A stretch of 64,000 nucleotides of DNA from a virus (IMGVR_UViG_3300042502_001710:12966-76965), one strand, 5' to 3'. Counted from the stretch's first letter, positions 29,583 to 59,954 are shown. The notes: generated by a model from the sequence alone, not told the origin. Made by a program: numbers and translations.

Positions 29583-29607
29583 TCAAACCTCAACATATAA
29601 TGGTTAT

Positions 29608-30285: not shown

Positions 30286-31912
30286 TGATTAGCTCCTTGA
30301 TTTTCATTATTTTATCCAGTAAAGTGATACCGAGAATGTCGAATTTGACGTGTCCTAAAGCTTCTAAATCAGACATTTCTAAACCTGCTATCTTTTCAGA
30401 TCCGTTTTTTTGATTGACCATTGGGCATACTTTATGAAGAGGTTCTGCTGATATAACAACACCAGCAGCATGTTTGCTTTGGGTTTTAAATGTTCCTTCA
30501 ATATCTATTGCTTGCTGAAAATAAACAGCATAATCTCCTTTGAGTTCTCCTTCATCTGAAATGTAGCAATAATCTCTCAATTCTTTGGCGTTGTTTATCA
30601 AAGACCAACGAATAATAGATCGATCTTCTTCATCCATTTCTGCCAATTGATCCGAGATATCGGCTTCATTTGGAATATATCTTGTAATTTCATTCATTTC
30701 GCTAAAGCCACAGGCATTGTTTACTCTTAAAACTTCTTTGATGGCACTTCTGCCTTGAAGTCTTCCAAAGGTTAACATTTGACTAACATTGGTGTTTGTA
30801 TACTTGTCTTTTAAGTAAGCGATGATTTCGTCACGTTTTTCTCCCGGAACGTCCATGTCAATATCTGGCAAAGAGATATGATCCGCAGTGTTTCGTCCAG
30901 CATTATAAAACCTTTCAAACAAAAGGTCAAATTCAATTGGATCAATTTGTGTGATACCAATCAAATAAGATATCAAACAGCCTGCTGCCGACCCTCTGCC
31001 GGGACCGACCATCCAACCTTGACTGCGACAATAGTTTAAAATATCCCAAACTATCAGGAAATATCCAAAGAGATTTGCTTGCTCGATAACTTCATATTCT
31101 CTGCGAAACCTGTCACCATAAACGGTACGTTCATCAACGTTTTTGATTTTGTCGTTCAACAGCTCTTTCCAACCTTGCCTTGCCAATGTTTTTAAAAAGT
31201 CTTTTTCAGACTCTCCGCTTGGAGTAGCAAACGTGGGCAGCATCGGTTGATTGAGAATGTTATAGTTTTCGCATTTATCGAAAATCTCTTGAAAATCATC
31301 GACACGAGCGTCATTCACTAAAATGTGTGATATCTCATTCTTTGCTTTGAGATAGAAATCGTCAGAGGTGAAGAATTGCCAATTCTTGATCGATGGGCAT
31401 TTATTTGATGCCAGCTCTTTCTTTACCTGAGGAAGGGTCATTTTGTTTGCTGAGCAAAGAATAATTCTATGCAATTCAGCTTGATCTTTGTTTGCATAAA
31501 ATGTCTTTGTGAAAGATTCAGACCAAGCGTAGAAATCGTCACCATTGATTGGCGATGAAACTTCTTTCGAAGCTACGCAAATCAAGTTTCCGTTTTTACC
31601 AAGTTGAATCAGTAAAGAAGGATCGTAATTGCCATCTTCATCTATAGAAGATACGATCTGGATCAACTCAAGCCATCCGTTTTTATTCTTAGCGAAAATG
31701 GAAAAGTCATCGAATGAACATCCAATGATAGGCTTGATATCGTTGTCTACACAGGCTTTGTAGAAAGACACGGCTCCGGAAATTGACTTGTAATCAGCTA
31801 TCCCACACGCTGGATAGGAATTCTCTTTACACTTTTTAGCAAGTTCTTTGGGTCTTGAGAAACCATACTGCAAAGAATAGTGTGTGTAATTCAGTAACGG
31901 AAACCATTTCAT
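30278..31912 (-). CDS. dnaE: DNA polymerase III alpha, N-terminal part (degenerate PHP, palm, thumb)
   Basis: YFLIVWD, GPGRGSAAG, LLFERF, SLPDIDMD, HAAGVVI, KFDILG. Confidence 0.9.
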   Translation of the reverse strand: MKWFPLLNYTHYSLQYGFSRPKELAKKCKENSYPACGIADYKSISGAVSFYKACVDNDIKPIIGCSFDDFSIFAKNKNGWLELIQIVSSIDEDGNYDPSLLIQLGKNGNLICVASKEVSSPINGDDFYAWSESFTKTFYANKDQAELHRIILCSANKMTLPQVKKELASNKCPSIKNWQFFTSDDFYLKAKNEISHILVNDARVDDFQEIFDKCENYNILNQPMLPTFATPSGESEKDFLKTLARQGWKELLNDKIKNVDERTVYGDRFRREYEVIEQANLFGYFLIVWDILNYCRSQGWMVGPGRGSAAGCLISYLIGITQIDPIEFDLLFERFYNAGRNTADHISLPDIDMDVPGEKRDEIIAYLKDKYTNTNVSQMLTFGRLQGRSAIKEVLRVNNACGFSEMNEITRYIPNEADISDQLAEMDEEDRSIIRWSLINNAKELRDYCYISDEGELKGDYAVYFQQAIDIEGTFKTQSKHAAGVVISAEPLHKVCPMVNQKNGSEKIAGLEMSDLEALGHVKFDILGITLLDKIMKIKELING

Positions 31913-36446: not shown

Positions 36447-37679
36447 TTAAACGAGTTCTTTGATTGCGTTTCCGCCATTTGCGATACGCATTGGTCGTCC
36501 ATTTTTCGACGTATAATCTTTGCTGGTGTCTATATCAAGAGCAGAACAAACGGTTGCCATAAGGTCTGAAGCTTGATAGATCGATCCTTGAGGTTGAGTT
36601 CCGTCTTCTGAAGTTGATCCAATGACTTGCCCATTCTTGAACAACCCACCTGAAACAAAAGCGCTCCAACTCATAGCCCAGTGATCTCTGCCAGCATCCC
36701 GATTGATTTTGGGCGTTCGACCAAACTCGCCCATCATGATGATAGCGGTATTTTCCCACATGTCAAGTCTTTTCAGATCAACTATCAATGCGGAAATTGC
36801 TTTGTCTAATTCTGGCAATTTATTGTCTTTTAGCGTTTCGTGAGTCATTTGATGCAAATCCCAGCCTCCAAATCCAACTTCCACAAAAGGAACTCCGACT
36901 TGAATCAAACGGCGTGCCATCAATACGCTTCGGCCAAAGCTAGTGTTTCCATAAGCGTCTTTCGTTTGTTGAGGTTCTGTGTCAACCTTGAGAGCATCCA
37001 TCTGTGGAGAAGTATTTAACTTTATGGTTTTTTCATACAGCTTTTTATGGTCTCTTGGCAATTCTCCTCGTCTAGAATTGATAAAATTATCTTCGACAAA
37101 AGATAAAGCGTCCAAACGATTCAGATTGAGTTTGTTGCCTAGATTATTTACATTTCCATTGGAATCTACCACAAAGGGATTGTGCGAAGTTCCTAAAAAT
37201 CCACCGCCTACACTTCCAGTGTTGACAGAAAAAAACGATGGAATATCTAGTTCTTTTCTGTTTTTTCCAAGTTCAAAAGATGCCACAGAGCCAATGGATG
37301 GATGCTGCACTGTTGGAGAGGGTTTGAATCCAGTGTGCATATAATATGCTCCACGCTCATGATCTGCTTCTTGAGTGGACATGCTTCTGATCAAAGAAAA
37401 GCTATCGCCAAGCTGTGCCAACAAAGGCAGATGTTCACAAATCTGAAAATCCCCAGTTGTGCTGATAGGCTTGAATGGACCACCGTTCTTGGTGTTTGGT
37501 TTCAAGTCCCACATATCGATAGTTGGAGGACCGCCGCCCAGCCATATTAAAATTGCAGATTTTTCTTGTTTGCGTAATTTAGACGCATTTTCAATGATAC
37601 TATGACCAAAAGCGTAAGATGTGGAGGCTAAAGCTGCAAGTCCACCAACATGCTCTAAGAAATGTCTTCTGTTTATCAT
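36447..37679 (-). CDS. DUF1501 protein with Tat signal
   Basis: NRRHFL; LGGGPPTIDMWDLKP; WDLH; GEFGRTP; GRDHW. Confidence 0.88.
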   Translation of the reverse strand: MINRRHFLEHVGGLAALASTSYAFGHSIIENASKLRKQEKSAILIWLGGGPPTIDMWDLKPNTKNGGPFKPISTTGDFQICEHLPLLAQLGDSFSLIRSMSTQEADHERGAYYMHTGFKPSPTVQHPSIGSVASFELGKNRKELDIPSFFSVNTGSVGGGFLGTSHNPFVVDSNGNVNNLGNKLNLNRLDALSFVEDNFINSRRGELPRDHKKLYEKTIKLNTSPQMDALKVDTEPQQTKDAYGNTSFGRSVLMARRLIQVGVPFVEVGFGGWDLHQMTHETLKDNKLPELDKAISALIVDLKRLDMWENTAIIMMGEFGRTPKINRDAGRDHWAMSWSAFVSGGLFKNGQVIGSTSEDGTQPQGSIYQASDLMATVCSALDIDTSKDYTSKNGRPMRIANGGNAIKELV

Positions 37680-38953
37680 ATAATAATATCCTTTATAATT
37701 TTTCCAAAATCAACAATCTCTATCGGTCTGCCTCCGGGGGCCATGAGTTCTTTATCAGCATTGATTCCCATTTGATGGTAGATTGTCGTTGCCCAATCAT
37801 GAATTTCAACCGGATTGTTTTGAGGCTCTGATCCAGTTGTGTCTGAAGATCCGTAAACAATACCACCCTTGATTCCGCCTCCAGCAAGAACTGAACTGAA
37901 AACTCTAGGCCAATGGTCTCGTCCTCCTGTAGAATTAATTTTTGGAGTTCTTCCAAATTCAGAAATTACACAAACCAAAGTTGAACTCAAAAGCCCTCTG
38001 TCTGATAGATCTTGAATCAATGAAGCAAAACCTTGATCAAAAGCTGGAAGTTGAGATTTGATACCATTTTCTATACCGTCATGCATATCCCAACTGCCAT
38101 ATGTCAAGGTGACGAACCTTGCTCCAGCTTCCACAAGTCTACGAGCCAAAAGCATTCTGGCTCCAGCGGTATTTCTACCGTATCTGTCTCGTGTTTCTGG
38201 CGATTCTTTTTCTAGCTTAAATGCTTCTTGAGTCTCAGAATTTCCTATCAAGTCATAGGCTTTGTCATAAAAGGAGTTCATAGCCATCAAAGTATCTGCC
38301 GATTTATTTTGATTGATAAAATCTGAGTTTATCAGATCCAAAGCTTTTTTTCTTTTGTCGAATCTTTTGGCGTCGATTTGAAGAGCAAGATCTTTTACCT
38401 TAAAATTATCACTAGCAGGATCAGAGTTAAGATCAAAAGATCCAAAAGAACTGCTCAGATAACCAGTTCCAGCAAATTCATTTGATTGATTTGGAATAGA
38501 GATGTACGCAGGTATACTGTTTTTAGATCCAAACTCATGACTTACAACGGCTCCTATGGATGGGTATTGAATCGCTGGACTTGGTTTATATCCAGTGAAT
38601 ATATTGTGTGTGCCTCGTTCATGAGCAGCTTCACCATGAGTCATGGAGCGAAGTATTGTTAACTTGTCTGCAATCGTCGCTGTTTTCACCAAAGACTCAT
38701 TTAGCTGAATACCATCGACATTGGTGTTGATTGGCTTCATCGACCCTCGGTACTCTACAGGCACATTGATTTTAGGATCAAATGATTCCTGAGCAGCAAT
38801 GCCTCCGGGAAGATATATAAAAATCACACTCTTTGCTGTGCCTTCCACACTGCTGTGACTCTTTATGTCAGCAAGCGTCATATTATGACCGATTGCAGCT
38901 AAAACTCCAGCTTGCAAGAAGCCTCTGCGACCAATGTGAACATGGTGTAACAT
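37676..38953 (-). CDS. DUF1501 protein with Tat signal
   Basis: GRRGFL; AKSVIFIYLPGG..ESFDPK; ARRLVEAGARFV; WDMH; SEFGRTP; GRDHW. Confidence 0.88.
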   Translation of the reverse strand: MLHHVHIGRRGFLQAGVLAAIGHNMTLADIKSHSSVEGTAKSVIFIYLPGGIAAQESFDPKINVPVEYRGSMKPINTNVDGIQLNESLVKTATIADKLTILRSMTHGEAAHERGTHNIFTGYKPSPAIQYPSIGAVVSHEFGSKNSIPAYISIPNQSNEFAGTGYLSSSFGSFDLNSDPASDNFKVKDLALQIDAKRFDKRKKALDLINSDFINQNKSADTLMAMNSFYDKAYDLIGNSETQEAFKLEKESPETRDRYGRNTAGARMLLARRLVEAGARFVTLTYGSWDMHDGIENGIKSQLPAFDQGFASLIQDLSDRGLLSSTLVCVISEFGRTPKINSTGGRDHWPRVFSSVLAGGGIKGGIVYGSSDTTGSEPQNNPVEIHDWATTIYHQMGINADKELMAPGGRPIEIVDFGKIIKDIII

Positions 38954-41949: not shown

Positions 41950-43014
41950 TCATAATTCCTCTACAGATTTATTGTCGTGTATTCTGTTGACCCTTATAAA
42001 CTTAGCGGTTTTACTAAAATCTTTAAGATTTGTTGCTCCTGTGTAAGAACAAGCACTGCGAATTCCACCTAAAATATCTCTGAGTGTCAAGAATACTGTG
42101 CCTTTATAGTCAACCGTTTTTACCCTGCCTTCACTAGCTTTGTAATCTTGAAGACCTTCTCCATGTTTTTCTTGAGATTTTTTTGAAGACATTCCATAAA
42201 ATGACATGCTTTTTCTTTCGCCGTTTTCATCGTATGTCCACTCACCGTCGCATTCCCATGTGCCAGCAAGCATTCCTCCCAACATAACAAAATCTGCTCC
42301 AGCAGCATAAGCCTTGGCTACATCTGCTGGGTAACGACAACCTCCATCAGCACATATCAAACCAAGTCTACCAACCTCGGAGCTTAATCCGTGAGCTACG
42401 TGTGAGCATTCTGCAATAGCAGATAGCTGAGGATATCCTACTCCAGCTTTTAATCTCGTTGTGCAAGCAGATCCGGGACCAATCCCAACCTTCACAATAT
42501 CAACTCCACCATGAAGAATAAGCTCTGAAACCATTTCTGGAGTGCAAATATTTCCAGCCATAATTATAGAGTCATTGAATTTTCTTCTTATCGAGGCACA
42601 CCGATCAATAAACTTCTCAGTGTATCCATTGGCTACATCTACGCAGATATTAGGAGAGTGCCCAAGAATATCTGTTATTTCACTGATTTTATCAGAATCA
42701 TCTTCCATGCCCACGCTAACCCAAACATTATTTTGGTTATTACGCATACTGTAGTATGACGCAACGGAAGATGCTTCATGATGTTTACTGAGACATGTTA
42801 AGCAATCATAAGCTGATAACGCTGTTCCCATAGCAAAGGTGCCAGTTGTGTCCATATTGGCAGCGACTATTGGTATTCCATTCCAATCTCTGTTTGAGTG
42901 ATAGAATTTGAATGTTCTTTTTAAATCAACATCTTTTCTGCTAGCAGCCTTTGATCTTTGTGGTACGAGTAATACATCATCAAAGTCTAACTTCACGTCA
43001 TTATCAATCTTCAT
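41950..43014 (-). CDS. guaC: GMP reductase
   Basis: KLDFDDVLL, ANMD, DVANGY, KVGIGPGSACTTR, GYPQLSA, SEG; start MKID. Confidence 0.9.
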   Translation of the reverse strand: MKIDNDVKLDFDDVLLVPQRSKAASRKDVDLKRTFKFYHSNRDWNGIPIVAANMDTTGTFAMGTALSAYDCLTCLSKHHEASSVASYYSMRNNQNNVWVSVGMEDDSDKISEITDILGHSPNICVDVANGYTEKFIDRCASIRRKFNDSIIMAGNICTPEMVSELILHGGVDIVKVGIGPGSACTTRLKAGVGYPQLSAIAECSHVAHGLSSEVGRLGLICADGGCRYPADVAKAYAAGADFVMLGGMLAGTWECDGEWTYDENGERKSMSFYGMSSKKSQEKHGEGLQDYKASEGRVKTVDYKGTVFLTLRDILGGIRSACSYTGATNLKDFSKTAKFIRVNRIHDNKSVEEL

Positions 43015-44455
43015 CTTCTTCCTCTGCGTCAAAAGGTAGATTCGAACCCTCAATAATACCTCCGTTTGGAGACATTCTCATTTCATTTCTAGTTCTTAGT
43101 TCTACAAGTTTGGCATGAGATCCTATCATATTCATATTGATATAATTACCGTCGATCAAACCAGCTCCATGACGAGCTTTTAATGTTACCAACTTACGAT
43201 TACCTGCATTCGGTCCATCCTCTGCAAGCTCCTCAACAGACTTGAGTTTAAATATGGAGAAAGATGTGCATAACCAAATGAGCCTATCAGAACCGCTCAC
43301 AGCGTCTGTAGACTCTTTTGTGATACCATCTCTGTTCAACTGAACAAAAGACAAGCATGGAAAATCATATTTGACAGCTAGGTTATGAAGGTCGGTTATC
43401 TGAAAACCAAGAGCTTGATATTCTTGTACATTGTTTTTGATAGATGTTGAAGACATTAACTTTAGGTAGTCACAAACGACCAAACAGTCTTTTGTCTTGC
43501 CTTTATCATCTTGACCCACACTTCTCAATATCCATCTCTTTATAATGTTCAAGAGTGCGTCAAACGGCATTCCGGCAACACTCGCATAAGTGTATGGAAT
43601 GCTTTTGATTTCTTCTTTAGCTTTTTTCACACGGATAAGCTTTTCATCATCTTCTGAGAATTTTCCTGTTGATATTTCTCCTATGTCAACTCCGCTGATA
43701 TTAGACAAAATTCTATTGAGATGATCCTCTTTAGACATTTCTGTGTCTAGCATCAAAACGGGGATGCCTTTGCGAGCGTTGTGTATAGCTACGTTGTCTG
43801 CAAAGACAGACTTACCAACTCCGGGACGAGCGGAGACTAAGTCTACGCATTTTCTACGTAGACCTCCTCCAACCACAGAGTCGAATCTCGGAAAACCGCT
43901 AGTCAATCCGATTTGGTCACATTTATTCTCTATGAGAAAATCAAGATATTCATCAATGTCGTCTCCGAGCATCTCGGGTTTTTTACCAGAGTCATCTCCT
44001 CGAAGAAAATCCATCAACGGCATTTCCACAAGACTAATGATTTCATCTATAGTCTCATCGCCATTGATAGATGAGATATCTTTGTCTATCTTGTTGGCTA
44101 TAAGCCTAGCCTTACGGGCAAATTCAAACTTTTTAACTTGAGCCGCAAAAATCAATACATTGGTTTGCTTGACTGGATAATCCATCAAGTCTCTGATGTA
44201 TTCTAGCTCTTGTTTTGTTTGTATTGCTTCTGATAGATTGAGTTGCTCTGCCGCAGACAGGATCGACGGGATATCAATAGCATTACTTTTTTCAAGTACT
44301 TTTTCGATACACTTGTAAATAACCTGATTGCTGCGATGAGCAAAGCTATTGTGTGTAATGAAATCGTTTATCTCGACGTATGAATCTAAACCGTAAGCAA
44401 AAAGCCCTGCTAACACAGCGCGTTCTGCTCCAATGTCAGAAAGTTGTGAATCCAT
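43004..44455 (-). CDS. dnaB: Replicative DNA helicase
   Basis: AERAVLA, ARPGVGKS, DTEM, DYLKLM, QLNR, KARHG. Confidence 0.92.
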   Translation of the reverse strand: MDSQLSDIGAERAVLAGLFAYGLDSYVEINDFITHNSFAHRSNQVIYKCIEKVLEKSNAIDIPSILSAAEQLNLSEAIQTKQELEYIRDLMDYPVKQTNVLIFAAQVKKFEFARKARLIANKIDKDISSINGDETIDEIISLVEMPLMDFLRGDDSGKKPEMLGDDIDEYLDFLIENKCDQIGLTSGFPRFDSVVGGGLRRKCVDLVSARPGVGKSVFADNVAIHNARKGIPVLMLDTEMSKEDHLNRILSNISGVDIGEISTGKFSEDDEKLIRVKKAKEEIKSIPYTYASVAGMPFDALLNIIKRWILRSVGQDDKGKTKDCLVVCDYLKLMSSTSIKNNVQEYQALGFQITDLHNLAVKYDFPCLSFVQLNRDGITKESTDAVSGSDRLIWLCTSFSIFKLKSVEELAEDGPNAGNRKLVTLKARHGAGLIDGNYINMNMIGSHAKLVELRTRNEMRMSPNGGIIEGSNLPFDAEEEDED

Positions 44456-50862: not shown

Positions 50863-51514
50863 TCAAATCCTTTGCGTTACTAGTTGTTCGTATACCTTTT
50901 ATAAGGTTATCTTCCGCCCACAATGGTTGAAGATTGCTGTAATGAAAACACTGTTTTTGCTGCTCTGGATCATACATGTCGAACGAGGCGCAGGGTTTTA
51001 TATGATCGACATGCCACTTTCCGTAGTTTTCTTTTGTCATTCCCTCTTGAAACATAGATTCTAAATGTTCCCACAGTTGGCTGACATCACATCCTAACAG
51101 CCTCATGGTATGGTCCGATTTAGTGGTCCCCTTCAGTGCTCCGTATAACCTAGATCTCAAGTTAGATATCAATCTGTAATTGAGATTATTACTGAATCTA
51201 TCTCGTTCGTAAGCCTTTCTTCTCTCGAAGACATCGGGCTTAGAAGAATACTTTTTATTTCTGGCTCTAGACAAAATTCTAGCCGTTTCAGTTCTACTAT
51301 ACTCAGCTTTTATTGCCTTGCCGTGTTCTGAGTTGTCATAACGCTTCCTTCTTTTTTTAGCCATTTCTTTTTGTTCCGGGGTAGACGTTTCTGCCTTTCG
51401 GCAGTCTTTACAACGCCCTCTAAATCCGTCTTTAGACCTTCTATCTTTCCCAAAACATAAAATGGACTTATTCTCTTGACAACTGGCGCAGAACTTAAAT
51501 GCTACATGCTCCAC
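50846..51514 (-). CDS. HNH (beta-beta-alpha-Me) endonuclease with N-terminal zinc finger, putative homing endonuclease
   Basis: CASC...CKDC; WHVDHIKPC...HYSNLQPLWAEDN; likely GTG start at 51514 inside the nrdA 3' end. Confidence 0.8.
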   Translation of the reverse strand: MEHVAFKFCASCQENKSILCFGKDRRSKDGFRGRCKDCRKAETSTPEQKEMAKKRRKRYDNSEHGKAIKAEYSRTETARILSRARNKKYSSKPDVFERRKAYERDRFSNNLNYRLISNLRSRLYGALKGTTKSDHTMRLLGCDVSQLWEHLESMFQEGMTKENYGKWHVDHIKPCASFDMYDPEQQKQCFHYSNLQPLWAEDNLIKGIRTTSNAKDLNENNF

Positions 51515-52559
51515 CGATACACCCCCCTTCTTCTTCTCCCAACATCTCATTATGTTCTTTGTCTCCATCCGGAGTATTGGCATAATAGAAGTTTTTTAGA
51601 CCATATTTATAACCGTAAATCTGATCTTTGATCAACACGCTGAGAGGAATGTTTCCATCTGCATAATGAGAATAATTGTAATATAAATTAGTGCTCATGC
51701 TCATGTCAACAAACTTTTGAATCACGGCGGCTATATTAAGAATAGACTTATTGTCTTTTATGTCCCAAGCTATTGTGTAGTAATTCTTTCGACTGTGATA
51801 GTTTGGAACAAGCTGCTTGAGAACACCGTTCTTGGCCTTTTTGTGGATCAATAAGCTTCTGACTGGTTCTATTCCGTTGGTGCTGTTTTGAATGACAGAA
51901 CTACTTTCGCAAGGCATAATAGCAGATAAAGTAGAATTGCGAAGACCATGTTTCTTGACTCTTTCACGTAAACCCTCCCAGTCCATATTGTATTTAGGTT
52001 CAACAAGCTCATCGACCGTTTTCTTATACCAATCAATTGGTAGCAAGCCTTGAGAATATTTCGTATCTTTAAACTTTGGACAAGGCCCAAGAGATTCAGC
52101 TAATTCACAACTAGCGTTTATCAAATGCCATTGTATTTGCTCCATCGTTTCATGAACAAGTTTCAATGCAGCTTCATCGTTATAAGATAGCTTATTCTTT
52201 GCTAGAAAACCAGCTAAATTAGTGATTCCAATACCAAGAGAACGTCTGTTCTTTGTGAAAGTTTCGCCAGCCAAGATTGGATACTCTTGATATTCTATCA
52301 CAGAATCCAAAGTCTGTACGGCGATTCTGCAAGCTAATTCAATATCTTTCTCATTGTTCAACTCTAGCAGGTTGAGTGCCGATAAAATGCAGATACCTAT
52401 TTCACCTTTTGGATCACTTATGGATTCGATTGGAACCGTGGGGTGTATAATTTCTTGGCAATTGCTTACCAAAACCCCATTGGCATAAAAGTTGTGATTA
52501 TGCTTAACAGTAACGTCAAATACCTTTTCGACATTATTAAGCTTATTGATTTTTAGCAT
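51495..52559 (-). CDS. nrdA: Split-intein C-part plus ribonucleotide reductase alpha C-terminal part
   Basis: GVLVSN|CQEI, CILSALNL, RSLGIG, MPCESSS, NGIEP, FYY, terminal CIGGAC. Confidence 0.93.
   Translation of the reverse strand: MLKINKLNNVEKVFDVTVKHNHNFYANGVLVSNCQEIIHPTVPIESISDPKGEIGICILSALNLLELNNEKDIELACRIAVQTLDSVIEYQEYPILAGETFTKNRRSLGIGITNLAGFLAKNKLSYNDEAALKLVHETMEQIQWHLINASCELAESLGPCPKFKDTKYSQGLLPIDWYKKTVDELVEPKYNMDWEGLRERVKKHGLRNSTLSAIMPCESSSVIQNSTNGIEPVRSLLIHKKAKNGVLKQLVPNYHSRKNYYTIAWDIKDNKSILNIAAVIQKFVDMSMSTNLYYNYSHYADGNIPLSVLIKDQIYGYKYGLKNFYYANTPDGDKEHNEMLGEEEGGCIGGACSI
52461..52559 (-). mobile_element. Split intein C-fragment (33 aa)
   Basis: Block F VFDVTV..NHNFYANG, terminal SN, followed by Cys+1. 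Confidence 0.9.
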
Positions 52560-53229
52560 TTTTCTCGTTTCTCTGTTTAATAGTGTTACTAATTTTTAAA
52601 TTGACTTCTTCGTTGTATCTTTCATCTTTAGTCAGAGCGAACGAATCTTTATTGTGGTCAATACCGTTTTTTGATAAAAATTTCTTGAATGACTCTAAAA
52701 AGTTTTGATAACCTCCTCCAAAACGATACTTGGTATATGTTAGTGGCAATCCGTTTTCTTTCGAGTATTCAGTCCATCTAGCACGTATCAGACGGTTGTC
52801 ATTGCTCTTAAAAAAACTCATAGCGTACTCAAGAATTTCTTCGTTGGAAATGGCATTGGCATTAGGATTCTTCTTTCCTTTAGACCTTTTTGAAATCTTC
52901 TGCTTCCATTGGTTTAGCTTATGATCTGGAACGCACCATCCACCAACTCCTCCTTGACTTTCATTGTATCCATTTGCGATAGAGTCGTTTTCTTTAATAA
53001 ATTCTTTTTCCAATCGTAGAGCCTCTTCCTGAGACTCGCATTTGGAGAGTGTTTCAAATAGGCAATCAGAAATGCCATACAATCGGATAGCTCTATACAA
53101 GTGACTATCAATCCCAGCTATGGAGTTCAGATAATGTTTATGTATTCGCTCTGTTGGACTCTTGCTGGTCATACCAATGTATGTCTTTAGCGTCGTTTTG
53201 AAGGTAATTTTGTAGACGTAGTGTAGCAT
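52543..53229 (-). CDS. Free-standing GIY-YIG homing endonuclease
   Basis: YVY-x-YIG, R..H, 'LYRAIRLYG', E, 'GYNESQGG'; likely start MLHYVY after GGAGA. Confidence 0.85.
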   Translation of the reverse strand: MLHYVYKITFKTTLKTYIGMTSKSPTERIHKHYLNSIAGIDSHLYRAIRLYGISDCLFETLSKCESQEEALRLEKEFIKENDSIANGYNESQGGVGGWCVPDHKLNQWKQKISKRSKGKKNPNANAISNEEILEYAMSFFKSNDNRLIRARWTEYSKENGLPLTYTKYRFGGGYQNFLESFKKFLSKNGIDHNKDSFALTKDERYNEEVNLKISNTIKQRNEKNAKNQ

Positions 53230-53266
53230 GATCAATCTCCGCATGTAGGAATAGAAATTATCTATC

Positions 53267-53280
53267 CTATAATACACAAA
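53267..53280 (-). promoter_or_regulatory. Candidate phage promoter for the GIY-YIG gene and nrdA-C
   Basis: TTTGTGTATTATAG, 13/14 identical to 10413-10426. Confidence 0.4.
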
Positions 53281-54897
53281 TCATTCCATTATCTGCAATT
53301 CGTCCGTCTCTTCTAAGTCTTTCGCCATTACGTATCCACGGTTTTTGGTATAGATTTTATGATCTGGAGTACATTTTACGACAAAGCCAGACTCTAGATC
53401 TGTAACCTCCAGAATTTCCGCACTTTCATTCATCATTGCGGCGTCAGATATCAATTCAAAGCTATCTAAACCATCTTTTGAAGATAGAATTTTAACTTCC
53501 TTGCCATATTCAACTAGCTGCACTACCTCCTCCATAGAGATTGTACACAATTGCCCTTCCACGTCAACCATCACGGATGTATCTCCGGTTACGCATAAAT
53601 TAGACATATAGCATGGTATATTCCACGATCCATGCTCATTGGCATTGTCAATATTCATTGAATAAATTCGACCAGTTTCAAGTCTTTCGCGAGCAAAAAT
53701 TTCTGCCAATTTTCTGGCTGATATCTTCTTCTTAAACTTTAAAGATCTAGAATTTTCATACTTTAAATAAAGCTCTTCAAACTTCTTGTTGTCACCAAAA
53801 GCTTCGTATAATCCTTTTGCTTCATGAGGACTAAACAGGGTGATATCTTGATTTGCAATCAGACGATCATAAAATAATTTACAAAATTGAATTGAGTAGT
53901 CTAATTTTCGCACACGGTTATCGTCAGTTCCAGCGTTATTTTTAAGAACCAAGACATCTTCAATCTCGTAGTGCCAAAATGGAATATGGGCGGTCGCTGA
54001 CCCTCCCCTTAGGCCATTTTGACTTGTAGATTTTACTGCTGATTCGAAGTTTTTTAGGAATGGAATGACGCCAGTGTGAATAACTTCTCCTCCTCTGATT
54101 GGAGAGTTGATCGGTCTGATTCTTCCTATATTTAGACCGATACCAGCTCTTCTGGCTGTATACTTGCCAACAGCGTGGATGCTAGAAAAAATACCGTCTA
54201 TATCATCATTCACGTCAACAAGAACACAGCTTGCAAACTGACGGGTATTGGTTCTGACTCCAGCCATGATAGGAGTAGGCAGGTTGATCTTGAACGTAGA
54301 GTAGCAATCGTAGGCACGTTTTACACCCTCTAACGAATCAAACAGGCACATAGCGATACACATATAGGCGTACTGAGGTGTTTCATAGATAACACCGGTG
54401 CTTCTGTTTTTGACAAGATATTTATCAATCAGTTGTTGTAATCCAGCGTATGTAAAAAAATCGTCACGAGAGTGATTTATGTACATTCCAAGATTACGTA
54501 CCTTGTGATACGGATCATTTGGCTTAGTATCATCGATCCATTTGTTTAAAAGGTAATCGTGATAGATACCATTGTCTACGTTCCTTTGTAGGAACAGCGT
54601 AAAGTCCGTTGGGATGTCGCCGCAGCCCCATACTTCTTTTCTCAGTTGCATATTTAGCAGTCTAGCCGCAACATACTGATAATTTGGACTTTGCGTTGAG
54701 ATTAAATCATTTGCCGATTTAATTAAAATCTGGTGAATCTCTGAGCTTAACATTCCGTCGTAAAGAGATAGATTAGCATTCATTTCTACCTCAGAAAAAC
54801 TTACACCGTTGATGTCTTTGGTAGCCCACTCAAGAACCTTATGAATTTTTTCTACAGAAAAATTTTCCTTATCTCCATTACGTTTTGTAACTTGCAT
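53281..54897 (-). CDS. nrdA: Ribonucleotide reductase alpha N-terminal part plus split-intein N-part
   Basis: ATP cone (VTKRNG), ETPQ, PTP, ASCVL, QNGLRGGS, MSNL|CVTGDT. Confidence 0.93.
   Translation of the reverse strand: MQVTKRNGDKENFSVEKIHKVLEWATKDINGVSFSEVEMNANLSLYDGMLSSEIHQILIKSANDLISTQSPNYQYVAARLLNMQLRKEVWGCGDIPTDFTLFLQRNVDNGIYHDYLLNKWIDDTKPNDPYHKVRNLGMYINHSRDDFFTYAGLQQLIDKYLVKNRSTGVIYETPQYAYMCIAMCLFDSLEGVKRAYDCYSTFKINLPTPIMAGVRTNTRQFASCVLVDVNDDIDGIFSSIHAVGKYTARRAGIGLNIGRIRPINSPIRGGEVIHTGVIPFLKNFESAVKSTSQNGLRGGSATAHIPFWHYEIEDVLVLKNNAGTDDNRVRKLDYSIQFCKLFYDRLIANQDITLFSPHEAKGLYEAFGDNKKFEELYLKYENSRSLKFKKKISARKLAEIFARERLETGRIYSMNIDNANEHGSWNIPCYMSNLCVTGDTSVMVDVEGQLCTISMEEVVQLVEYGKEVKILSSKDGLDSFELISDAAMMNESAEILEVTDLESGFVVKCTPDHKIYTKNRGYVMAKDLEETDELQIME
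53284..53595 (-). mobile_element. Split intein N-fragment (104 aa)
   Basis: Block A CVTGDT; block B VKCTPDHKIYT; ends AKDLEETDEL then stop. Confidence 0.9.
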
Positions 54898-54946
54898 TTT
54901 CTTCCTTGTTTTAAATAGTTGAATAGTGACCACAATCGGGTAATCT

Positions 54947-55027: not shown

Positions 55028-55204
55028 TCAGTTTTCTTTTTGAACAACACTAAGCTCAATTCCTTCACCTATATGAACTATCATTACTTTTTTACCGTCT
55101 TTTATTGTGAATTCAACTTTTTCCAAAAGCTCTTTTGCTTTGTCTATGTCTTTTTCTTTTATGCCGACTCTAGAGAGCAACGCCTTGAGAATGTCATCTA
55201 TCAT
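55028..55204 (-). CDS. Small hypothetical protein
   Basis: Likely start MIDD overlapping the upstream stop. Confidence 0.5.
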   Translation of the reverse strand: MIDDILKALLSRVGIKEKDIDKAKELLEKVEFTIKDGKKVMIVHIGEGIELSVVQKEN

Positions 55205-55662
55205 TGTTTGACACCCCAAGATAAAGCATTTAAAGTTTGAACAAGCTTTTCACGTTTAGAGCTATCTAACGATACGCTTTCTTTACCAATTGACTGAACA
55301 ATAACGTTGTCAATATCCTCGCCTAGATTTTCATATTTATCTTTTAACTTTGTGTTAAAGTATAATGCTCCAGCAAACATATTAAACTTTCTGAATTGCT
55401 CGGTCGTCTGAATAAACTCTTTATCTGTGTTTATTATGTCAGCCATCTCTGAGTAAAAATAAAACAATAAATCTGAATCTTCAGAACTGAAGCTCGTTTC
55501 AACCACTGGCTGCACCAGAGTTTTATATTCTATTGAAGGCTCATCTACTTTGACTGTAGTTTTTGCTGGACTTATATTTTTGATTGCATCAAATGCTGAT
55601 TCACCAAAAATACCAATCACGCAGAGTGCTGATGCTAATAATAACTTTATTTTTTTATTCAT
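55201..55662 (-). CDS. Secreted or membrane-anchored helical protein
   Basis: N-terminal MNKKIKLLLASALCVIGIF. Confidence 0.6.
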   Translation of the reverse strand: MNKKIKLLLASALCVIGIFGESAFDAIKNISPAKTTVKVDEPSIEYKTLVQPVVETSFSSEDSDLLFYFYSEMADIINTDKEFIQTTEQFRKFNMFAGALYFNTKLKDKYENLGEDIDNVIVQSIGKESVSLDSSKREKLVQTLNALSWGVKQ

Positions 55663-55996
55663 TTGAATGTCCTCTTACGTCTATGGTTTGTTCAACCTTC
55701 ACAAGCAAAGGAAAAATCTTTTCAAGCTCATTGTAAGCTTGCATCAAGTTATTTTTCTTGCATTGAGACATTAAATTTTCCCACACAATAACCATCTGAG
55801 TTAGCTCTGAGATCGTGGATATGTTGTCTACACTCGACTCTTTCTCAACTTCTTGCTCAACATCTTTCTCAATAGATGGCTCTGGTTTATTTGATGGCTG
55901 CTTCCTTTTGAAAAAATCCTTTGGAATTTCACCCAAAATAACACTGCCTCCTAAAACGACCCCTAAACCAACCACAACCATTTGAAATACTGTCAT
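55655..55996 (-). CDS. Membrane-anchored protein
   Basis: N-terminal hydrophobic segment. Confidence 0.6.
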   Translation of the reverse strand: MTVFQMVVVGLGVVLGGSVILGEIPKDFFKRKQPSNKPEPSIEKDVEQEVEKESSVDNISTISELTQMVIVWENLMSQCKKNNLMQAYNELEKIFPLLVKVEQTIDVRGHSNE

Positions 55997-56349
55997 TGTT
56001 TTTTCTCCGCTTCATTGAATATGCAACTTAATTCCTGTCCCGATAAACCCTTAGAAACTTCTATCATAGATTTGTAGACTGAGTCACGATCTTTTTTAGA
56101 TTTCCATTTCTTTTTAATATTTCTGTGCAATAGTAGTTTATACATCACGGAAGGATTCTTTATTTCATCGAATAAATCTTCCTTGTTCTTGCTTCTATTG
56201 CATTCATATATAAATCTTGAAATGTTTATGATCAAGCCTGCGATAGCAATGATAAAGAATGGATCAATGCTGTAATTTTCATCACCTGAAAATCTATGGG
56301 CCGCAACCTTCCTCGCTATTTCATTTAACTCTTCATTTTCTTGATTCAT
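55993..56349 (-). CDS. Hypothetical protein with one hydrophobic helix
   Basis: DPFFIIAIAGLIINI. Confidence 0.55.
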   Translation of the reverse strand: MNQENEELNEIARKVAAHRFSGDENYSIDPFFIIAIAGLIINISRFIYECNRSKNKEDLFDEIKNPSVMYKLLLHRNIKKKWKSKKDRDSVYKSMIEVSKGLSGQELSCIFNEAEKKQ

Positions 56350-56921
56350 TGAACACCCAATCCTTCAATCATCTCTTTTACGCCCTTAGAATCAATAAAC
56401 CCTATTTTCTTAGAAATGATTTTATCAAAAACGTTTGACTTGATCAACAGTATTGTTGGATATCTCGTAATCTTGTAATAAGAAAGATATTTCTTATTTT
56501 CTGCATCTTCTTCGTTTATAAAGACGAGTTTTATTTTTTTGCTGTCCATCAATTCTCTAAGATCTTTATCTTCCCAAGTAGTCTTTTTCATTAGTCTGCA
56601 TGGTGCGCACCACTCAGCACCAATCTGGTAGATATAATATTCTGGATCTTGTGTTGCTACAATAGTATTATCTATAATTGGGTCATTTTTTTGACAAGCC
56701 TTGCATCCGGGACATTCAGTCTTGTGACCGTCACCATGAATGATAAAACCAGAACCATCGCAAAGCTCTTCTTTGTCGTCGTCTGGGGCTTCAACGTTCA
56801 TTAAAAATGATTGAGCTAATCTTGTGGAAACAAAAGCGCGAGCTGGATTTTTGAACTGTTGATCTTGATCGCACCCGTCAAGAAAAAAGAGTAAACATAA
56901 AGCTAATACTTTCTTATACAT
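56346..56921 (-). CDS. Putative lipoprotein with Zn-ribbon-like segment and thioredoxin domain
   Basis: Start MYKKVLALCLLFFLDGC (lipobox-like); CDGSG...CPGC; AEWCAPC; YPT. Confidence 0.78.
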   Translation of the reverse strand: MYKKVLALCLLFFLDGCDQDQQFKNPARAFVSTRLAQSFLMNVEAPDDDKEELCDGSGFIIHGDGHKTECPGCKACQKNDPIIDNTIVATQDPEYYIYQIGAEWCAPCRLMKKTTWEDKDLRELMDSKKIKLVFINEEDAENKKYLSYYKITRYPTILLIKSNVFDKIISKKIGFIDSKGVKEMIEGLGVQ

Positions 56922-56934
56922 CGCAATCTCCATA

Positions 56935-57861
56935 TCATAAAAATGATGATGTGCCATAATCTGGTAGATCTTTAGCTGGGAACCCATCAACATTGCTAAA
57001 AACCCAAGATCCTTGCTCGGCCAACATTCCTCGGGCGTCTTTTTCTCTGATCCAAAAACTACCTTCTGGCTGATCATGAACCCTTGGTCCTGAGTTCCAT
57101 AGACCCCAAGAGTTTTGAACTAAAAATAACATTTCTTTAAATTTACTTTTTGTGTCATCACATGCGATCCAAGCCATTGCATGATTCCAGCCGCTAGATC
57201 TTTCTGCGATACCGTTACCGTCTCTCTTGGAAGAGAATCCATAACCAGAACAAACACTGATAGCGTAACCGTTGGCCAAAGCGTCTCTGGCTTCTTGTAT
57301 GGTTGTTATCATCGATATAGTTTTTACTTGATGTTTTTTAGCTTCGTTGATCCAAATTGACTGAGGAATAGTTTTATTTGCACCAACCTTAGCATTGTAG
57401 GTAGATAAGTCTATTGCTCCATAATTCTTACGCAATAAAATGCCACCTTGTGTGGATACGTATTTAGCCGCATTGGAGCAGGTCATACCTTGACCACTGT
57501 TGGTTCTGCTTTGATAAATGCCTTCTGTGGCACTTCTGGCTTCGAACGATTCAGATTCACCCTGTACATCTATTTCTACTGCTCGGGTGACGTCAACAGC
57601 GTTCCTAGTGGCATGACTTACGCAGTCCCCCGTTTCTTGTCTTTCTGATGGACCAAACTTAGGGTCAAATTTTAAAAGAGACTTGTATGGGAGCGAGAGT
57701 TTTCCTTCTCCCGACCCATACAGTCTGTAAGCAGCGGCTCCAAATAGAGGTGTTTTCAATTCACCCAGCAAAGTCGCCGTTTCTTCTGGATCGCAGATCG
57801 CTCCATTAAAACCTTTTCGATAAGCATTCAGAAGATCTTTTGGCGAATTAAAATCACTCAT
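56935..57861 (-). CDS. Papain-like (C1) cysteine peptidase
   Basis: Q-ETGDC (oxyanion Gln and catalytic Cys), NHAM (His), QNSWG (Asn). Confidence 0.85.
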   Translation of the reverse strand: MSDFNSPKDLLNAYRKGFNGAICDPEETATLLGELKTPLFGAAAYRLYGSGEGKLSLPYKSLLKFDPKFGPSERQETGDCVSHATRNAVDVTRAVEIDVQGESESFEARSATEGIYQSRTNSGQGMTCSNAAKYVSTQGGILLRKNYGAIDLSTYNAKVGANKTIPQSIWINEAKKHQVKTISMITTIQEARDALANGYAISVCSGYGFSSKRDGNGIAERSSGWNHAMAWIACDDTKSKFKEMLFLVQNSWGLWNSGPRVHDQPEGSFWIREKDARGMLAEQGSWVFSNVDGFPAKDLPDYGTSSFL

Positions 57862-57879
57862 TTTGATATTCCTATATAA

Positions 57880-58098
57880 TTACTTCTTGTTGTTGTTTTT
57901 TGCCCACTTCAAAATTGTGTCCAAGCCCATTGCGAGAACTGTGGTGACAAGAGGTGAATACACACCAAAGTCTATAAGTTTTACATTTTCAGCAACCACA
58001 GTCAAAGCGGCTGCTCCACCAACAAGTGCCGCGTTCTTTGCCAAGTTGATCAAATCTCTAGTGTTTAATTGAAAACCATTAGAACCTTCTGTGCTCAT
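57880..58098 (-). CDS. Holin-like small two-TM protein
   Basis: 72 aa, two hydrophobic segments, basic C-terminus KWAKNNNKK. Confidence 0.55.
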   Translation of the reverse strand: MSTEGSNGFQLNTRDLINLAKNAALVGGAAALTVVAENVKLIDFGVYSPLVTTVLAMGLDTILKWAKNNNKK

Positions 58099-58675
58099 TA
58101 CATTCTCCTATTTGGAAAAAATGAATTAAAAAACCTTCGTGAATTGAATGTGCGATTTTATATGGAAAACCAACAAACCTAATTGAGCATCCGTTTACTG
58201 AAACTGTCTCGATATCAATCTTCCGGCACATACTTAAACATGATTTTATTTCAGTGATAAACTCTTCTCTCTGTTTTTCATCAACCACAGAGAACCAGTC
58301 ATGACCTTCAAGAGGTCCAAGATCTAGCGTTTCTGTTTTAAACGCTTCGTTGTACCAAGTCAACCTGCCGTCTTTATCTGTTTCAAACAAACATTGAGAT
58401 GAATAATGCAACGTTGCTTTGGATCTTTGATCAAGAATTTTTTGTCTAATTTCTATTCTATCAACAGTAGATTTTAAATTGTTGATTATATCTTTCATGG
58501 AGCCACCACCATTTGGAGTGACTTCTTGTTTGATTATTTTCAGATGATCTGATATTCGTACTTGCTCATCAAAGAATGCTTTAAACCATTTTGTTATTTT
58601 GCGTATGGTTAAGAAAATAGTACCTGAGGCACCCATGAGCGTTGCTATAGCGGCAGCTTGATCTTGTGAAAGCAT
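58079..58675 (-). CDS. Membrane protein with a PAS domain
   Basis: N-terminal TM, 'PNGGGSMKD' coiled coil, PAS-like 'LFETDKDGRLTWYNEAF...LEGHDWFSVVDEKQRE'. Confidence 0.7.
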   Translation of the reverse strand: MLSQDQAAAIATLMGASGTIFLTIRKITKWFKAFFDEQVRISDHLKIIKQEVTPNGGGSMKDIINNLKSTVDRIEIRQKILDQRSKATLHYSSQCLFETDKDGRLTWYNEAFKTETLDLGPLEGHDWFSVVDEKQREEFITEIKSCLSMCRKIDIETVSVNGCSIRFVGFPYKIAHSIHEGFLIHFFQIGECNEHRRF

Positions 58676-58701
58676 ATTGCAAAACCCCTATGTTAAGACG
58701 T

Positions 58702-58738
58702 AAAACTAGCCCCCAGAGTTATCCAGAGGCTAGTTTTT
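58702..58738 (-). terminator. Rho-independent terminator
   Basis: ACTAGCCTCTGGA-TAAC-TCTGGGGGCTAGT-TTT. Confidence 0.7.
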
Positions 58739-58754
58739 AAGTTAAAAGGTAATT

Positions 58755-59411
58755 TTAGCTTTCGAAAGAATCTTTCGCTTTGTAATTATCTTGCTTAGGC
58801 AGTATTGAGCCGTACATGTAAACCAGTTCTCCGGGAACTGCTCGCGTTGGAGCACCCGCAGAATCGGCAGAGGTTGTGGCTCCACCTGCGACTGCTGGAT
58901 CGATCAAGTTTTTAAGAACGCCGCCTGCCACGGTTCTTACTCTATAAGGAGCAATACCAGAGCTTGGACGTGTTAAAACATCTATATCCAAAGTTCCGAG
59001 AGTCCTAGTTCGCTGAATCTGATTGATGCCGTCTCTGTCAGGCTTTGGACCAGATCGACCTCCATGCAAGGTGGTGCTTGCTACACCCCCAAGAGTGACG
59101 GTTACATTTCCACCTTTCATTACCCATTCGGTGGAATTAGCTTTGTAACCAAGAACTGTCGTTCCGGCAGTTACTGATCCCGGAACAGCACCAGAAACGC
59201 CAACACGGTCAGTATACTGACTGCCTGTTCCAACTTTGGCGATCACTTTAGACCCAATGGCCTTTCCAACGTTATCAGCAAGACTGTTGATGCTGAGATT
59301 TTTAGTCATTGGACCTGTGGTTGAAATGTTACCACCACCAAGAACTGTTCCGCCGTTATTCTTTTCCACGGAAGGAGCGGCACCATTACCGCTAGCTGCT
59401 ACAATAGGCAT
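58755..59411 (-). CDS. Gly/Thr/Val-rich putative virion protein
   Basis: CAGGAG RBS; own promoter-like motif and terminator. Confidence 0.55.
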   Translation of the reverse strand: MPIVAASGNGAAPSVEKNNGGTVLGGGNISTTGPMTKNLSINSLADNVGKAIGSKVIAKVGTGSQYTDRVGVSGAVPGSVTAGTTVLGYKANSTEWVMKGGNVTVTLGGVASTTLHGGRSGPKPDRDGINQIQRTRTLGTLDIDVLTRPSSGIAPYRVRTVAGGVLKNLIDPAVAGGATTSADSAGAPTRAVPGELVYMYGSILPKQDNYKAKDSFES

Positions 59412-59485: not shown

Positions 59486-59494
59486 ATTATACAC
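59486..59494 (-). promoter_or_regulatory. GTGTATAAT candidate phage promoter
   Basis: Same core as 10416-10424; overlaps the sigma gene stop codon. Confidence 0.35.
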
Positions 59495-59954
59495 TTTTAT
59501 TAAGTGCGTATTTGATCTTTTCTAAACTTTTGTTCAATCTTATCCTGATAGTCTCTCCGCAAACACCCCTTGTGCTAGCCAATTCTTTGATGGTCATGTC
59601 TCCGTAAAGCCTGTCGATCACCAAAGATGGATCGTCGCACACGGATTCTATCAGGTCTCTGGTCTCAAAATCAACAAAAGGATCTCGACGATCAGGTATA
59701 TTGACCTGTAATTGAGCGTTGTTGTTTCTGTTGAATTTCCTTTGACTCAAACATTCAAACACAACGCCGCTGTGAAGATATGTGGTAAACTTAGCTTTGC
59801 TTCTTTTGTCGTATTTATTAACGGCCCGTAAAATGGCGTTCAATATACAACTTTTGATCTCGTCCTGAGATAAAATCTTACGAAAAGATGACGCGGCATT
59901 TTGAGCAACGTTCATAGTTTCGACATCATTGACATAATGCTCATAACTTTTCAT
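59487..59954 (-). CDS. Phage sigma70-family sigma factor (regions 2 and 4)
   Basis: 'AILRAVNKYD....KFTTYL'; 'MTIKELASTRGVCGETIRIRLNKSLEKIK'. Confidence 0.8.
   Translation of the reverse strand: MKSYEHYVNDVETMNVAQNAASSFRKILSQDEIKSCILNAILRAVNKYDKRSKAKFTTYLHSGVVFECLSQRKFNRNNNAQLQVNIPDRRDPFVDFETRDLIESVCDDPSLVIDRLYGDMTIKELASTRGVCGETIRIRLNKSLEKIKYALNKSV

Follow-up and report, generated by a model that had tools for sequence, protein, structure and literature searches.

A papain-family peptidase cassette in uncultured aquatic phages: a candidate envelope-directed lysis or egress module

Why would a phage carry a papain-like protease directly behind a small holin-like protein, in the place where an endolysin might be expected? 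The question is raised by a cassette of eight minus-strand genes in a 64,000-nucleotide stretch of viral DNA (IMGVR_UViG_3300042502_001710:12966-76965). This stretch, referred to below as the window, comprises the 64 kb at the 3' end of an IMG/VR viral contig of 76,965 bp with a CheckV completeness of 46%. A sequence-only reading of the window had described the cassette as eight tightly coupled genes between two terminators and as a possible lysis system. The eight open reading frames (ORFs) indeed lie between 58675 and 55028, neighbours overlap or are 13-20 nucleotides (nt) apart, and both hairpins are present. From the comparisons described here, we consider the chances about even that the cassette is a protease-based, envelope-directed lysis or egress module that would act in a diderm, probably planctomycete, host. 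The features, in the order of transcription, are:

58702-58738, minus strand: upstream terminator hairpin, a 16-bp stem followed by UUUU, which closes a gene for a protein of 218 amino acids (aa)
58079-58675, minus strand: g1, 198 aa, with an N-terminal transmembrane (TM) helix, a coiled-coil stretch and a PAS-like domain
57880-58098, minus strand: g2, 72 aa, with two hydrophobic helices and a basic C-terminal tail; holin-like
56935-57861, minus strand: g3, 308 aa, a papain-family (C1-like) cysteine peptidase without signal peptide
56346-57077 (ORF; likely 56346-56921), minus strand: g4, 191 aa, with a signal peptide, a lipobox-like FLDGC, a conserved helix, a Zn-ribbon and a thioredoxin domain (WCAPC)
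55993-56349, minus strand: g5, 118 aa, with one central TM helix (hydropathy)
55655-55996, minus strand: g6, 113 aa, with an N-terminal TM anchor (hydropathy 2.32) and a helical C-terminal part
55201-55662, minus strand: g7, 153 aa, with an N-terminal membrane anchor and a helical domain
55028-55219, minus strand: g8, an ORF for a small soluble protein of 63 aa
54995-55021, minus strand: downstream intrinsic terminator, a 12-bp stem with 6 GC pairs followed by a T-run (ATTTTTTTTA)

The protein g3 is a genuine papain-family (C1-like) cysteine peptidase that belongs to a distant, unclassified branch. Among 44 homologues, down to 33% identity, there is no variation at Q75, C80, H227 and W252, and at least 90% have N250 and S251. 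The sequence of g3 has no match in Pfam at E <= 0.1, PF00112 included, and none in PHROG, and a phmmer search with the single sequence found nothing in the PDB. The PDB is reached by the family profile alone, which matches caricain, cathepsin H and xylellain (E 7e-6), and the hidden Markov model (HMM) alignment places the catalytic residues of g3 onto C25, H159 and N175-S-W of papain. The AlphaFold2 model of g3, with a predicted local distance difference test (pLDDT) of 92.7 and a predicted template modelling score of 0.93, has the papain fold with its alpha-helical L domain and beta-barrel R domain. A Foldseek search with this model gave 252 PDB matches at E <= 0.001, with C1 peptidases among the matches listed and xylellain (3OIS) as the best (E 6e-10).

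Hydropathy shows no hydrophobic N-terminus or signal peptide and no TM helix in g3, and C80 is the sole Cys conserved in the 44 sequences, i.e., there are no conserved disulfides. The secretion signal and the conserved disulfides of the C1A subfamily are thus both lacking. The intact papain-like protease without signal peptide that had been proposed from the sequence alone is well founded, as the catalytic set is invariant, the fold is that of papain and the N-terminus is not hydrophobic.

Conservation of gene order, which had been named as a check on the sequence-only reading, agrees with that reading. The order of all eight genes is kept in 30 related viral loci (group 1), and because of this the cassette is more than a chance arrangement. 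These loci are flanked by a small sigma-like gene and the gene for the 218-aa protein on one side and by nrdA on the other, and 23 of the 30 have a g8 homologue. More distant loci keep a part of the cassette. The group-2 loci and G004, which together with G001 is one of two complete relatives (130.8 kb with terminal repeats and 166.8 kb, respectively), have no PAS gene and no g2 and keep C1, a signal-anchored Zn-ribbon or thioredoxin protein, g5 and g6. The locus type represented by L144 contains g2, a g6-like gene, a g7-like gene and C1 at 36-37% identity, followed by a Zn-ribbon-thioredoxin protein. Homologues of g5 are found in both G001 and G004, and g6 is kept in group 1, group 2 and G004.

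The module is also found in two planctomycete metagenome-assembled genome (MAG) loci with 61-66% GC, L107 (Pirellulales) and L108 (Thermoguttaceae, on a 922-kb contig). Here, the set consists of a g6-like protein, a g7-like protein, C1 (38-39% identity), an LLAGC lipoprotein and a g5-like protein with a C-terminal TM helix. The lipoprotein keeps the CxxC...GWITHGDGH.T.CP.C ribbon and has no thioredoxin, and the module is located between a protease-capsid fusion gene and head-decoration and tail genes. The adjacency of the core genes therefore extends from aquatic phages of 130-170 kb to planctomycete prophage-like elements. The element in L108 (L108:2851-12121) consists of a serine integrase, the protease-capsid fusion, the C1 module, a head-decoration gene and a transposase, and a second C1 copy is found in the same genome (G005 C4, at ~2.14 Mb).

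The firmest tie among genes of the cassette comes from gene fusions. The proteins g3, g4 and g7 form a conserved core unit, and since they are fused into one anchored polypeptide in other phages, they work together, probably outside the cytoplasmic membrane. Among 150 C1 cluster representatives, 14 have an N-terminal, strongly hydrophobic TM helix followed by a g7-like domain and C1, and full-length g7 aligns by BLASTP to the N-termini of P0170, P0192, P0188, P0177, P0169 and P0178 (E 3e-7 to 1e-4). Half of these fusions (7 of the 14) extend beyond C1 by ~90-230 aa at the C-terminus, and in five of them (P0169, P0178, P0192, P0220 and P0229) the extension has a recognisable Zn-ribbon and/or thioredoxin-like CPPC part. 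In P0178, P0220, P0229 and P0169 it is the Zn-ribbon that is fused to the C1 C-terminus.

The AlphaFold2 model of P0178 contains, from the N-terminus, a helix, a helical bundle, a disordered linker of ~70 residues, C1, an amphipathic helix and the ribbon. The helical domain (residues 31-160) has a block-mean pLDDT of 78-96. Rather than being a membrane helix, the amphipathic helix corresponds to the 'YRxYISTxLA' helix that is conserved in g4. When residues 1-240 of P0178 were used for a word-based search, the sole match was the query itself. The anchors of the fusions have a hydrophobicity of 2.0-3.0 and a Gly/Ala/Ser/Thr fraction of 0.11-0.42, i.e., they do not resemble signal-anchor-release (SAR) domains. 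They are flanked by a short basic stretch on the N-terminal side and an acidic, Pro-rich stretch on the C-terminal side, which suggests an N-in, C-out topology. The simplest topology is then probably one in which the g7 domain, C1 and the ribbon or thioredoxin would all be outside the inner membrane. A complex prediction of C1 with mature g4 (residues 17-190) scored 0.00, which is evidence neither way.

The likely start of g4 is the ATG at 56921, 13 nt past the g3 stop, which gives a protein of 191 aa that opens with a signal peptide. A signal peptide is always present in the homologues of g4, and L107 has the canonical LLAGC lipobox. The earlier description of g4 as a lipobox-like Zn-ribbon/thioredoxin protein stands for its two domains: the Zn-ribbon is invariant, and the thioredoxin domain exceeds the Pfam cut-offs (Thioredoxin_7 29.8 bits, Thioredoxin_2 29.9 bits, Thioredoxin 26.3 bits). 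It does not extend to the whole family, as no more than 7 of 13 aligned sequences have a thioredoxin domain, in each case with WCxPC, and the lipobox Cys is found in some relatives only. An accessory function of the thioredoxin survives the comparison, while the role as a core part of the module has to be given up, because the Zn-ribbon alone is invariant.

The thioredoxin domain, the lipobox, the PAS protein and the 72-aa g2 are lineage-specific extras. In g1, the TM helix covers residues 6-24, and the PAS-like domain matches PAS_4 just over the cut-off (E 3.9e-5, 24.3 bits against 23.1, 70 of 110 profile positions), a marginal match that agrees with the TM and PAS protein recognised in the sequence-only reading. 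In L144, g1 is replaced by a 91-aa protein with a TM helix and a coiled coil. It is a lineage-specific accessory and a possible regulator, and the description of the cassette as 'led' by the PAS protein has been abandoned, as neither this protein nor g2 is found in group 2 and G004. By hydropathy there is one hydrophobic segment in g1, two in g2 and one in each of g4 to g7, as had been noted before.

The protein g2 is well conserved among the relatives that carry its gene, and in 44 of the 54 loci with g2 the C1 gene follows directly. This agrees with the proposal that the protease occupies the endolysin slot. In its size, its two helices and its charged tail, g2 resembles a holin. The Atlas clusters that are nearest to g2 according to a protein language model are automatically named 'Holin family protein' (0.94-0.95), which we treat as a lead only. 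The link between g2 and Phage_r1t_holin (PF16945) is limited to an Atlas feature score of 0.88, and PF16945 has no match at E <= 10 in the window contig and its four relatives (G000-G004).

Is there another lysin in these phages? A six-frame Pfam search was performed in five relatives, among them the complete G001 and G004, and none of 13 peptidoglycan-hydrolase or -binding families (lysozymes, transglycosylases, amidases, M15, M23, CHAP, NlpC/P60, GH19, GH25, GH108 and PG_binding_1) was matched. The negative result for CHAP (PF05257) and NlpC/P60 (PF00877) covers the lineage relatives searched. A scan of ten more conserved soluble proteins of G004 revealed no lysin; they are sugar-nucleotide enzymes, a GP88-family protein, an HNH nuclease, a ClpP-type protease and proteins of unknown family. 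The expectation that no canonical endolysin is encoded elsewhere is thus supported, but weakly, since most structural genes go unrecognised as well. Of ten structural proteins, no more than two, the terminase and one head protein, could be recognised, and portal, capsid and tail are invisible to the profile libraries. Structural matches among viral proteins include two proteins of uncultured phages (484 and 385 aa) that are named 'Peptidoglycan binding-like' and 'N acetylmuramidase'; such names hint at phages in which a papain-type fold is combined with wall-directed parts. Our literature searches turned up neither a lysis module built on a C1-type peptidase nor any account of how phages lyse planctomycetes.

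A role of g3 in head maturation, which had been named as an outcome that would speak against lysis, is made unnecessary by another protease. A ClpP-family protease (E 8e-25) is encoded directly upstream of the terminase large subunit in G001 (L088:1531-2184) and is conserved in G004 (L097:3081-3764). With this likely prohead protease in the lineage, capsid maturation does not require the C1 enzyme, and in L108 a protease is fused to the capsid protein. Searches of the relatives for Peptidase_S78 and S77 found neither. Given the ClpP-type protease beside the terminase, the membrane-bound and exported partners and the location in the replication region, we regard g3 as an unlikely head-maturation protease.

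We suggest the following mechanism for the cassette. The effector would be g3, a peptidase that, having no signal, would fold in the cytoplasm. Late in infection, g2 could let g3 through the inner membrane, and the released enzyme would dock on g7 and g4 at the periplasmic face. There, it might cut a load-bearing peptide bond of the envelope, either in a peptidoglycan stem or cross-link or in an envelope tether protein. The thioredoxin domain of g4, where present, could keep or make the catalytic thiol reduced in the oxidising periplasm, and the single-pass proteins g5 and g6 together with g1 might tune the timing or the disruption of the outer membrane. In the fused relatives the anchor of the protein itself would export the enzyme, which would be held latent until triggering. 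The sequence-only reading had aimed the lysis at a proteinaceous wall, a premise that is outdated, as planctomycetes possess peptidoglycan (PMC4432640); a proteinaceous, cystine-cross-linked wall is therefore not needed as the target. A more specific proposal is lysis without an endolysin of a known family, in which the C1 protease is docked on an anchor and a Zn-ribbon at the periplasmic face, its thiol is switched on by the exported thioredoxin or by reductants that enter once a holin has opened the membrane, and it would then cleave peptides of the peptidoglycan or an envelope tether. Such a route in planctomycete phages, and perhaps in phages of other rarely cultured diderms, is more speculative and somewhat less probable than the general reading.

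The cassette can be compared with four known systems. As in lambda S-R-Rz/Rz1-type cassettes (PMC6139136), a small two-TM protein directly precedes a signal-less hydrolase, an exported partner (sometimes a lipoprotein) and N-terminally anchored helical proteins follow, the genes form a compact co-directional block between terminators, and no second lysin is recognised in complete relatives. However, the hydrolase here is a C1-type protease and not a muramidase, amidase, M15, M23, CHAP or NlpC enzyme. Part of the lineage has no holin-like gene, the block maps to the replication region, and no protein of the genome evolves more slowly than the enzyme. The likeness to spanins is also partial: g6 and g7 are N-terminally anchored and helical and g4 is a lipoprotein in some relatives, but other phages have g7 and the exported partner g4 joined to the enzyme in one protein, an arrangement that does not fit spanins.

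Papain-like enzymes are not foreign to phage lysis, as CHAP and NlpC/P60 belong to the papain-like superfamily and are established endolysin domains (PMC10318531). Together with the pseudomurein endoisopeptidases PeiW/PeiP they share with g3 that they are phage cysteine peptidases of this superfamily, and they cut wall peptides (PMC10318531); however, they are members of other families, in which the catalytic residues differ in order and setting. With xylellain of Xylella fastidiosa (3OIS) and the C1A zymogens, such as procathepsins and propapain, g3 shares the papain fold, the Gln/Cys/His/Asn-Ser-Trp set and a short N-terminal extension, and the fused relatives, with anchor, helical domain and catalytic domain, have the layout of a pre-pro-enzyme. 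The differences are an identity of at most 16%, no PF00112 match, no conserved disulfides and no signal peptide in g3. In addition, the 'pro-like' g7 is a separate membrane protein here. The endolysin Lyz of phage P1 is a lysozyme with an intramolecular disulfide switch. Likeness to this SAR endolysin (the field is reviewed in PMC9025707) lies in the handling of a catalytic Cys in the oxidising periplasm and in the N-terminal tether of the fused relatives. It differs in that the enzyme here is a protease with a separate thioredoxin or Zn-ribbon partner, and a SAR domain, weakly hydrophobic and Gly/Ala-rich, was found neither on g3 nor on the fused relatives.

The peptidase family itself is large and unusually conserved. 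At E <= 0.001 it contains 1,376-1,381 proteins on contigs of up to ~173 kb, many of them from ocean surveys, and 144 IMG/VR stretches were confirmed to carry a member. Among deposited phages it is not seen: when 50,697 deposited phage genomes were searched by tblastn with three divergent C1 members, no match appeared, and blastn of the whole cassette against deposited phages found nothing. The median identity of g3 in the 30 related loci is 77%, equal to that of nrdA, compared with 34-54% for the neighbouring genes. When G000 (the window contig) or G001 is compared with G004, C1 is the best conserved shared protein (68-69% identity), whereas the polymerase, helicase, recombinase and IMPDH are at 25-59%.

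Inteins are present in ~35 of the 150 C1 cluster representatives, and the five that were tested match the Hint, Intein_splicing or LAGLIDADG families. They are inserted at the catalytic Cys (around residue 80) or just after the catalytic His (around 228-230), and some proteins have both. Those with LAGLIDADG endonucleases are found in C1 homologues in the range P0121-P0260 (e.g. P0126, P0123 and P0145). At the Cys insertion site the nucleophile of the protease would double as the +1 residue of splicing. Inteins are known to persist at the most conserved sites of phage proteins (PMC2677866). A member outside phages was also found: in the Bacteroidota genome G477, a 311-aa protein of the C1 family (L121:10000-10935, on a 3.9-Mb contig) stands alone among cellular metabolic genes. 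Probable genes for an agmatine deiminase and a C-N hydrolase are among its neighbours, and neither phage genes nor partners of the module are found close by.

Several of these observations weigh against an envelope-directed lysis or egress module. We know of no muralytic member among the C1-family enzymes. Endolysins normally vary fast, and the extreme conservation of C1 together with inteins in the active site is untypical of them. No holin HMM for g2 was found among Pfam and PHROG, and g1 and g2 are both absent from the group-2 loci and the complete G004. In a 17%-complete fragment (L166:3420-5891) the PAS gene and g2 are followed directly by nrdA, and the C1 module is absent both at this site and across the available 32 kb of the contig. 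Genes for replication and nucleotide metabolism surround the cassette, for which we saw no separate promoter. As most structural genes are unrecognisable, the negative search for a lysin is weak, and a divergent one may hide among them. Finally, the stand-alone homologue in Bacteroidota also speaks against a dedicated lysis enzyme.

The alternative that survives best is one in which the complex does not lyse the cell and instead trims periplasmic or surface proteins, e.g., to block superinfection, to free progeny from debris or to clear the way for assembly, with true lysis genes elsewhere that are too divergent to be seen. The exported or anchored partners and the anchored fusions fit this, the cassette is in the early or middle replication region and not after the late genes, and G004 has the core without a g2-like holin. 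Extreme conservation and inteins would fit an enzyme tied to a conserved host target, and profile libraries that miss most structural genes could miss a lysin too. What this explanation does not readily account for is the adjacency of g2 and C1 in 44 of 54 loci; no candidate lysin appeared in the 13 families or the ten conserved soluble proteins, and the signal-less g3 would have no export route except a membrane lesion. We regard it as plausible, although less likely than lysis or egress, and it deserves more weight than the two that follow.

It is somewhat more doubtful that g3 works at the cytoplasmic face, where it would process phage proteins (e.g., the giant virion proteins) or host proteins in the course of take-over or assembly and the membrane proteins would merely tether it. 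This would agree with a g3 that lacks a signal peptide and conserved disulfides and is as conserved as nrdA, with a cellular stand-alone homologue that has no export signal, and with the module in L107 and L108 between a capsid gene and head-decoration and tail genes. The exported g4 is difficult to reconcile with it, as its Zn-ribbon is elsewhere fused to the C1 C-terminus with no convincing TM helix between them. The flanks of the anchors suggest N-in, C-out, and canonical head proteases exist, ClpP-type in G001 and G004 and fused to the capsid protein in L108. Very improbable is the idea that the genes are co-located by descent only and that the peptidase is a mobile, selfishly conserved gene: PAS, g2, the thioredoxin domain and the lipobox do come and go, and inteins and homing endonucleases are common in the lineage, but it is close to refuted by the g7-C1-Zn-ribbon/thioredoxin fusions in many cluster representatives and by the adjacency of C1 and the Zn-ribbon across 38% identity and a 25-point difference in GC. 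The preferred reading is still a lysis or egress module directed at the envelope.

Which host would this envelope belong to? The best clue in the window is a pair of tandem Tat-type DUF1501 genes at 36447-38953 (Pfam E 7e-89 and 4e-110). The second, which looks like a host-derived auxiliary gene, encodes a protein that has full-length identities of 55-63% to Planctomycetota, with matches in 111 of 201 sampled genomes, compared with at most 38% partial identity in Bacteroidota and matches in 12 of 201. From this comparison and from the presence of the module in planctomycete prophage-like elements, a planctomycete host is likely, in agreement with the host first proposed. With a cut-off of E <= 1e-20, and with 301 genomes searched per phylum, members of the C1 family were found in 5 genomes of Planctomycetota, 2 of Bacteroidota and 1 of Chloroflexota, counts that include the genome from which each search started. 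A Chloroflexota/SAR202 host, considered since two MAG hits are so labelled, was rejected, as the family is found in 0 of 300 other Chloroflexota and the binning of phage contigs into MAGs is unreliable. GC content, the relatives of DnaE and three MAG hits had brought a Bacteroidota host into consideration; the DUF1501 comparison lowered its likelihood.

The borders of the cassette indicate how it may be expressed. The 85-nt stretch 58676-58760, which contains the upstream hairpin, folds with -27.6 kcal/mol (z = -4.45 compared with shuffled sequences), and this hairpin marks the border of the cassette on that side and would probably serve as an attenuator. RNA contigs from two freshwater metatranscriptome studies cover the gene for the 218-aa protein and stop at 58686-58688, just past the hairpin, which is a weak hint that it works as a terminator. 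A further RNA contig spans 55063-55236 in the g8 region, and two freshwater runs hold small shares of the region; as the contigs cover only these two places, the uncovered g1-g7 are uninformative on expression. No TATAAT-type promoter was seen between the upstream terminator and g1, and such promoters are present before dnaE, nrdA and other genes of the window. The cassette is thus probably transcribed by read-through from upstream.

The gene for the 218-aa protein (58755-59411) encodes a Gly/Thr/Ser/Val-rich protein with no family match and has its own strong terminator. It is the sole part of the region that is well covered by RNA contigs in the two freshwater metatranscriptomes, and the product is therefore likely abundant and perhaps structural. 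Just upstream, and kept there in the group-1 relatives, a gene at 59487-59954 encodes a 155-aa protein that resembles a small sigma factor, with a region-4-like helix-turn-helix near the C-terminus and no Pfam match.

On the other side of the cassette, nrdA is fractured (51495-54933). Between the N-terminal part (53281-54933) and the C-terminal part (51495-52559), which starts with an Intein_splicing match, lies a free-standing GIY-YIG gene (52543-53277), and in G001 nrdA is a single gene of 742 aa. Such fractured arrangements are known from ocean metagenomes (PMC2677866). The DnaE-type polymerase (28017-31912) is split as well, into ORFs 30278-31912 and 28017-29582 with a 225-aa ORF (29608-30285) between them; the same three-gene layout is found in G001 and G004, and the nearest deposited relatives are ~30% identical. 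A gene of the IMPDH/GMP-reductase family (41950-43053) has 57-59% identity with G004 and ranks behind few proteins, such as C1.

If g3 is indeed the lysis enzyme, the cassette would add a new catalytic family, possibly with redox-gated control, to the few known lysis routes of tailed phages. It would also provide a probe and an enzymatic tool for the planctomycete envelope, the make-up of which has long been disputed. A conserved enzyme with inteins in its active site is an unusual case for the choice of targets by mobile elements, and the C1 family marks a large uncultured part of the aquatic virosphere.

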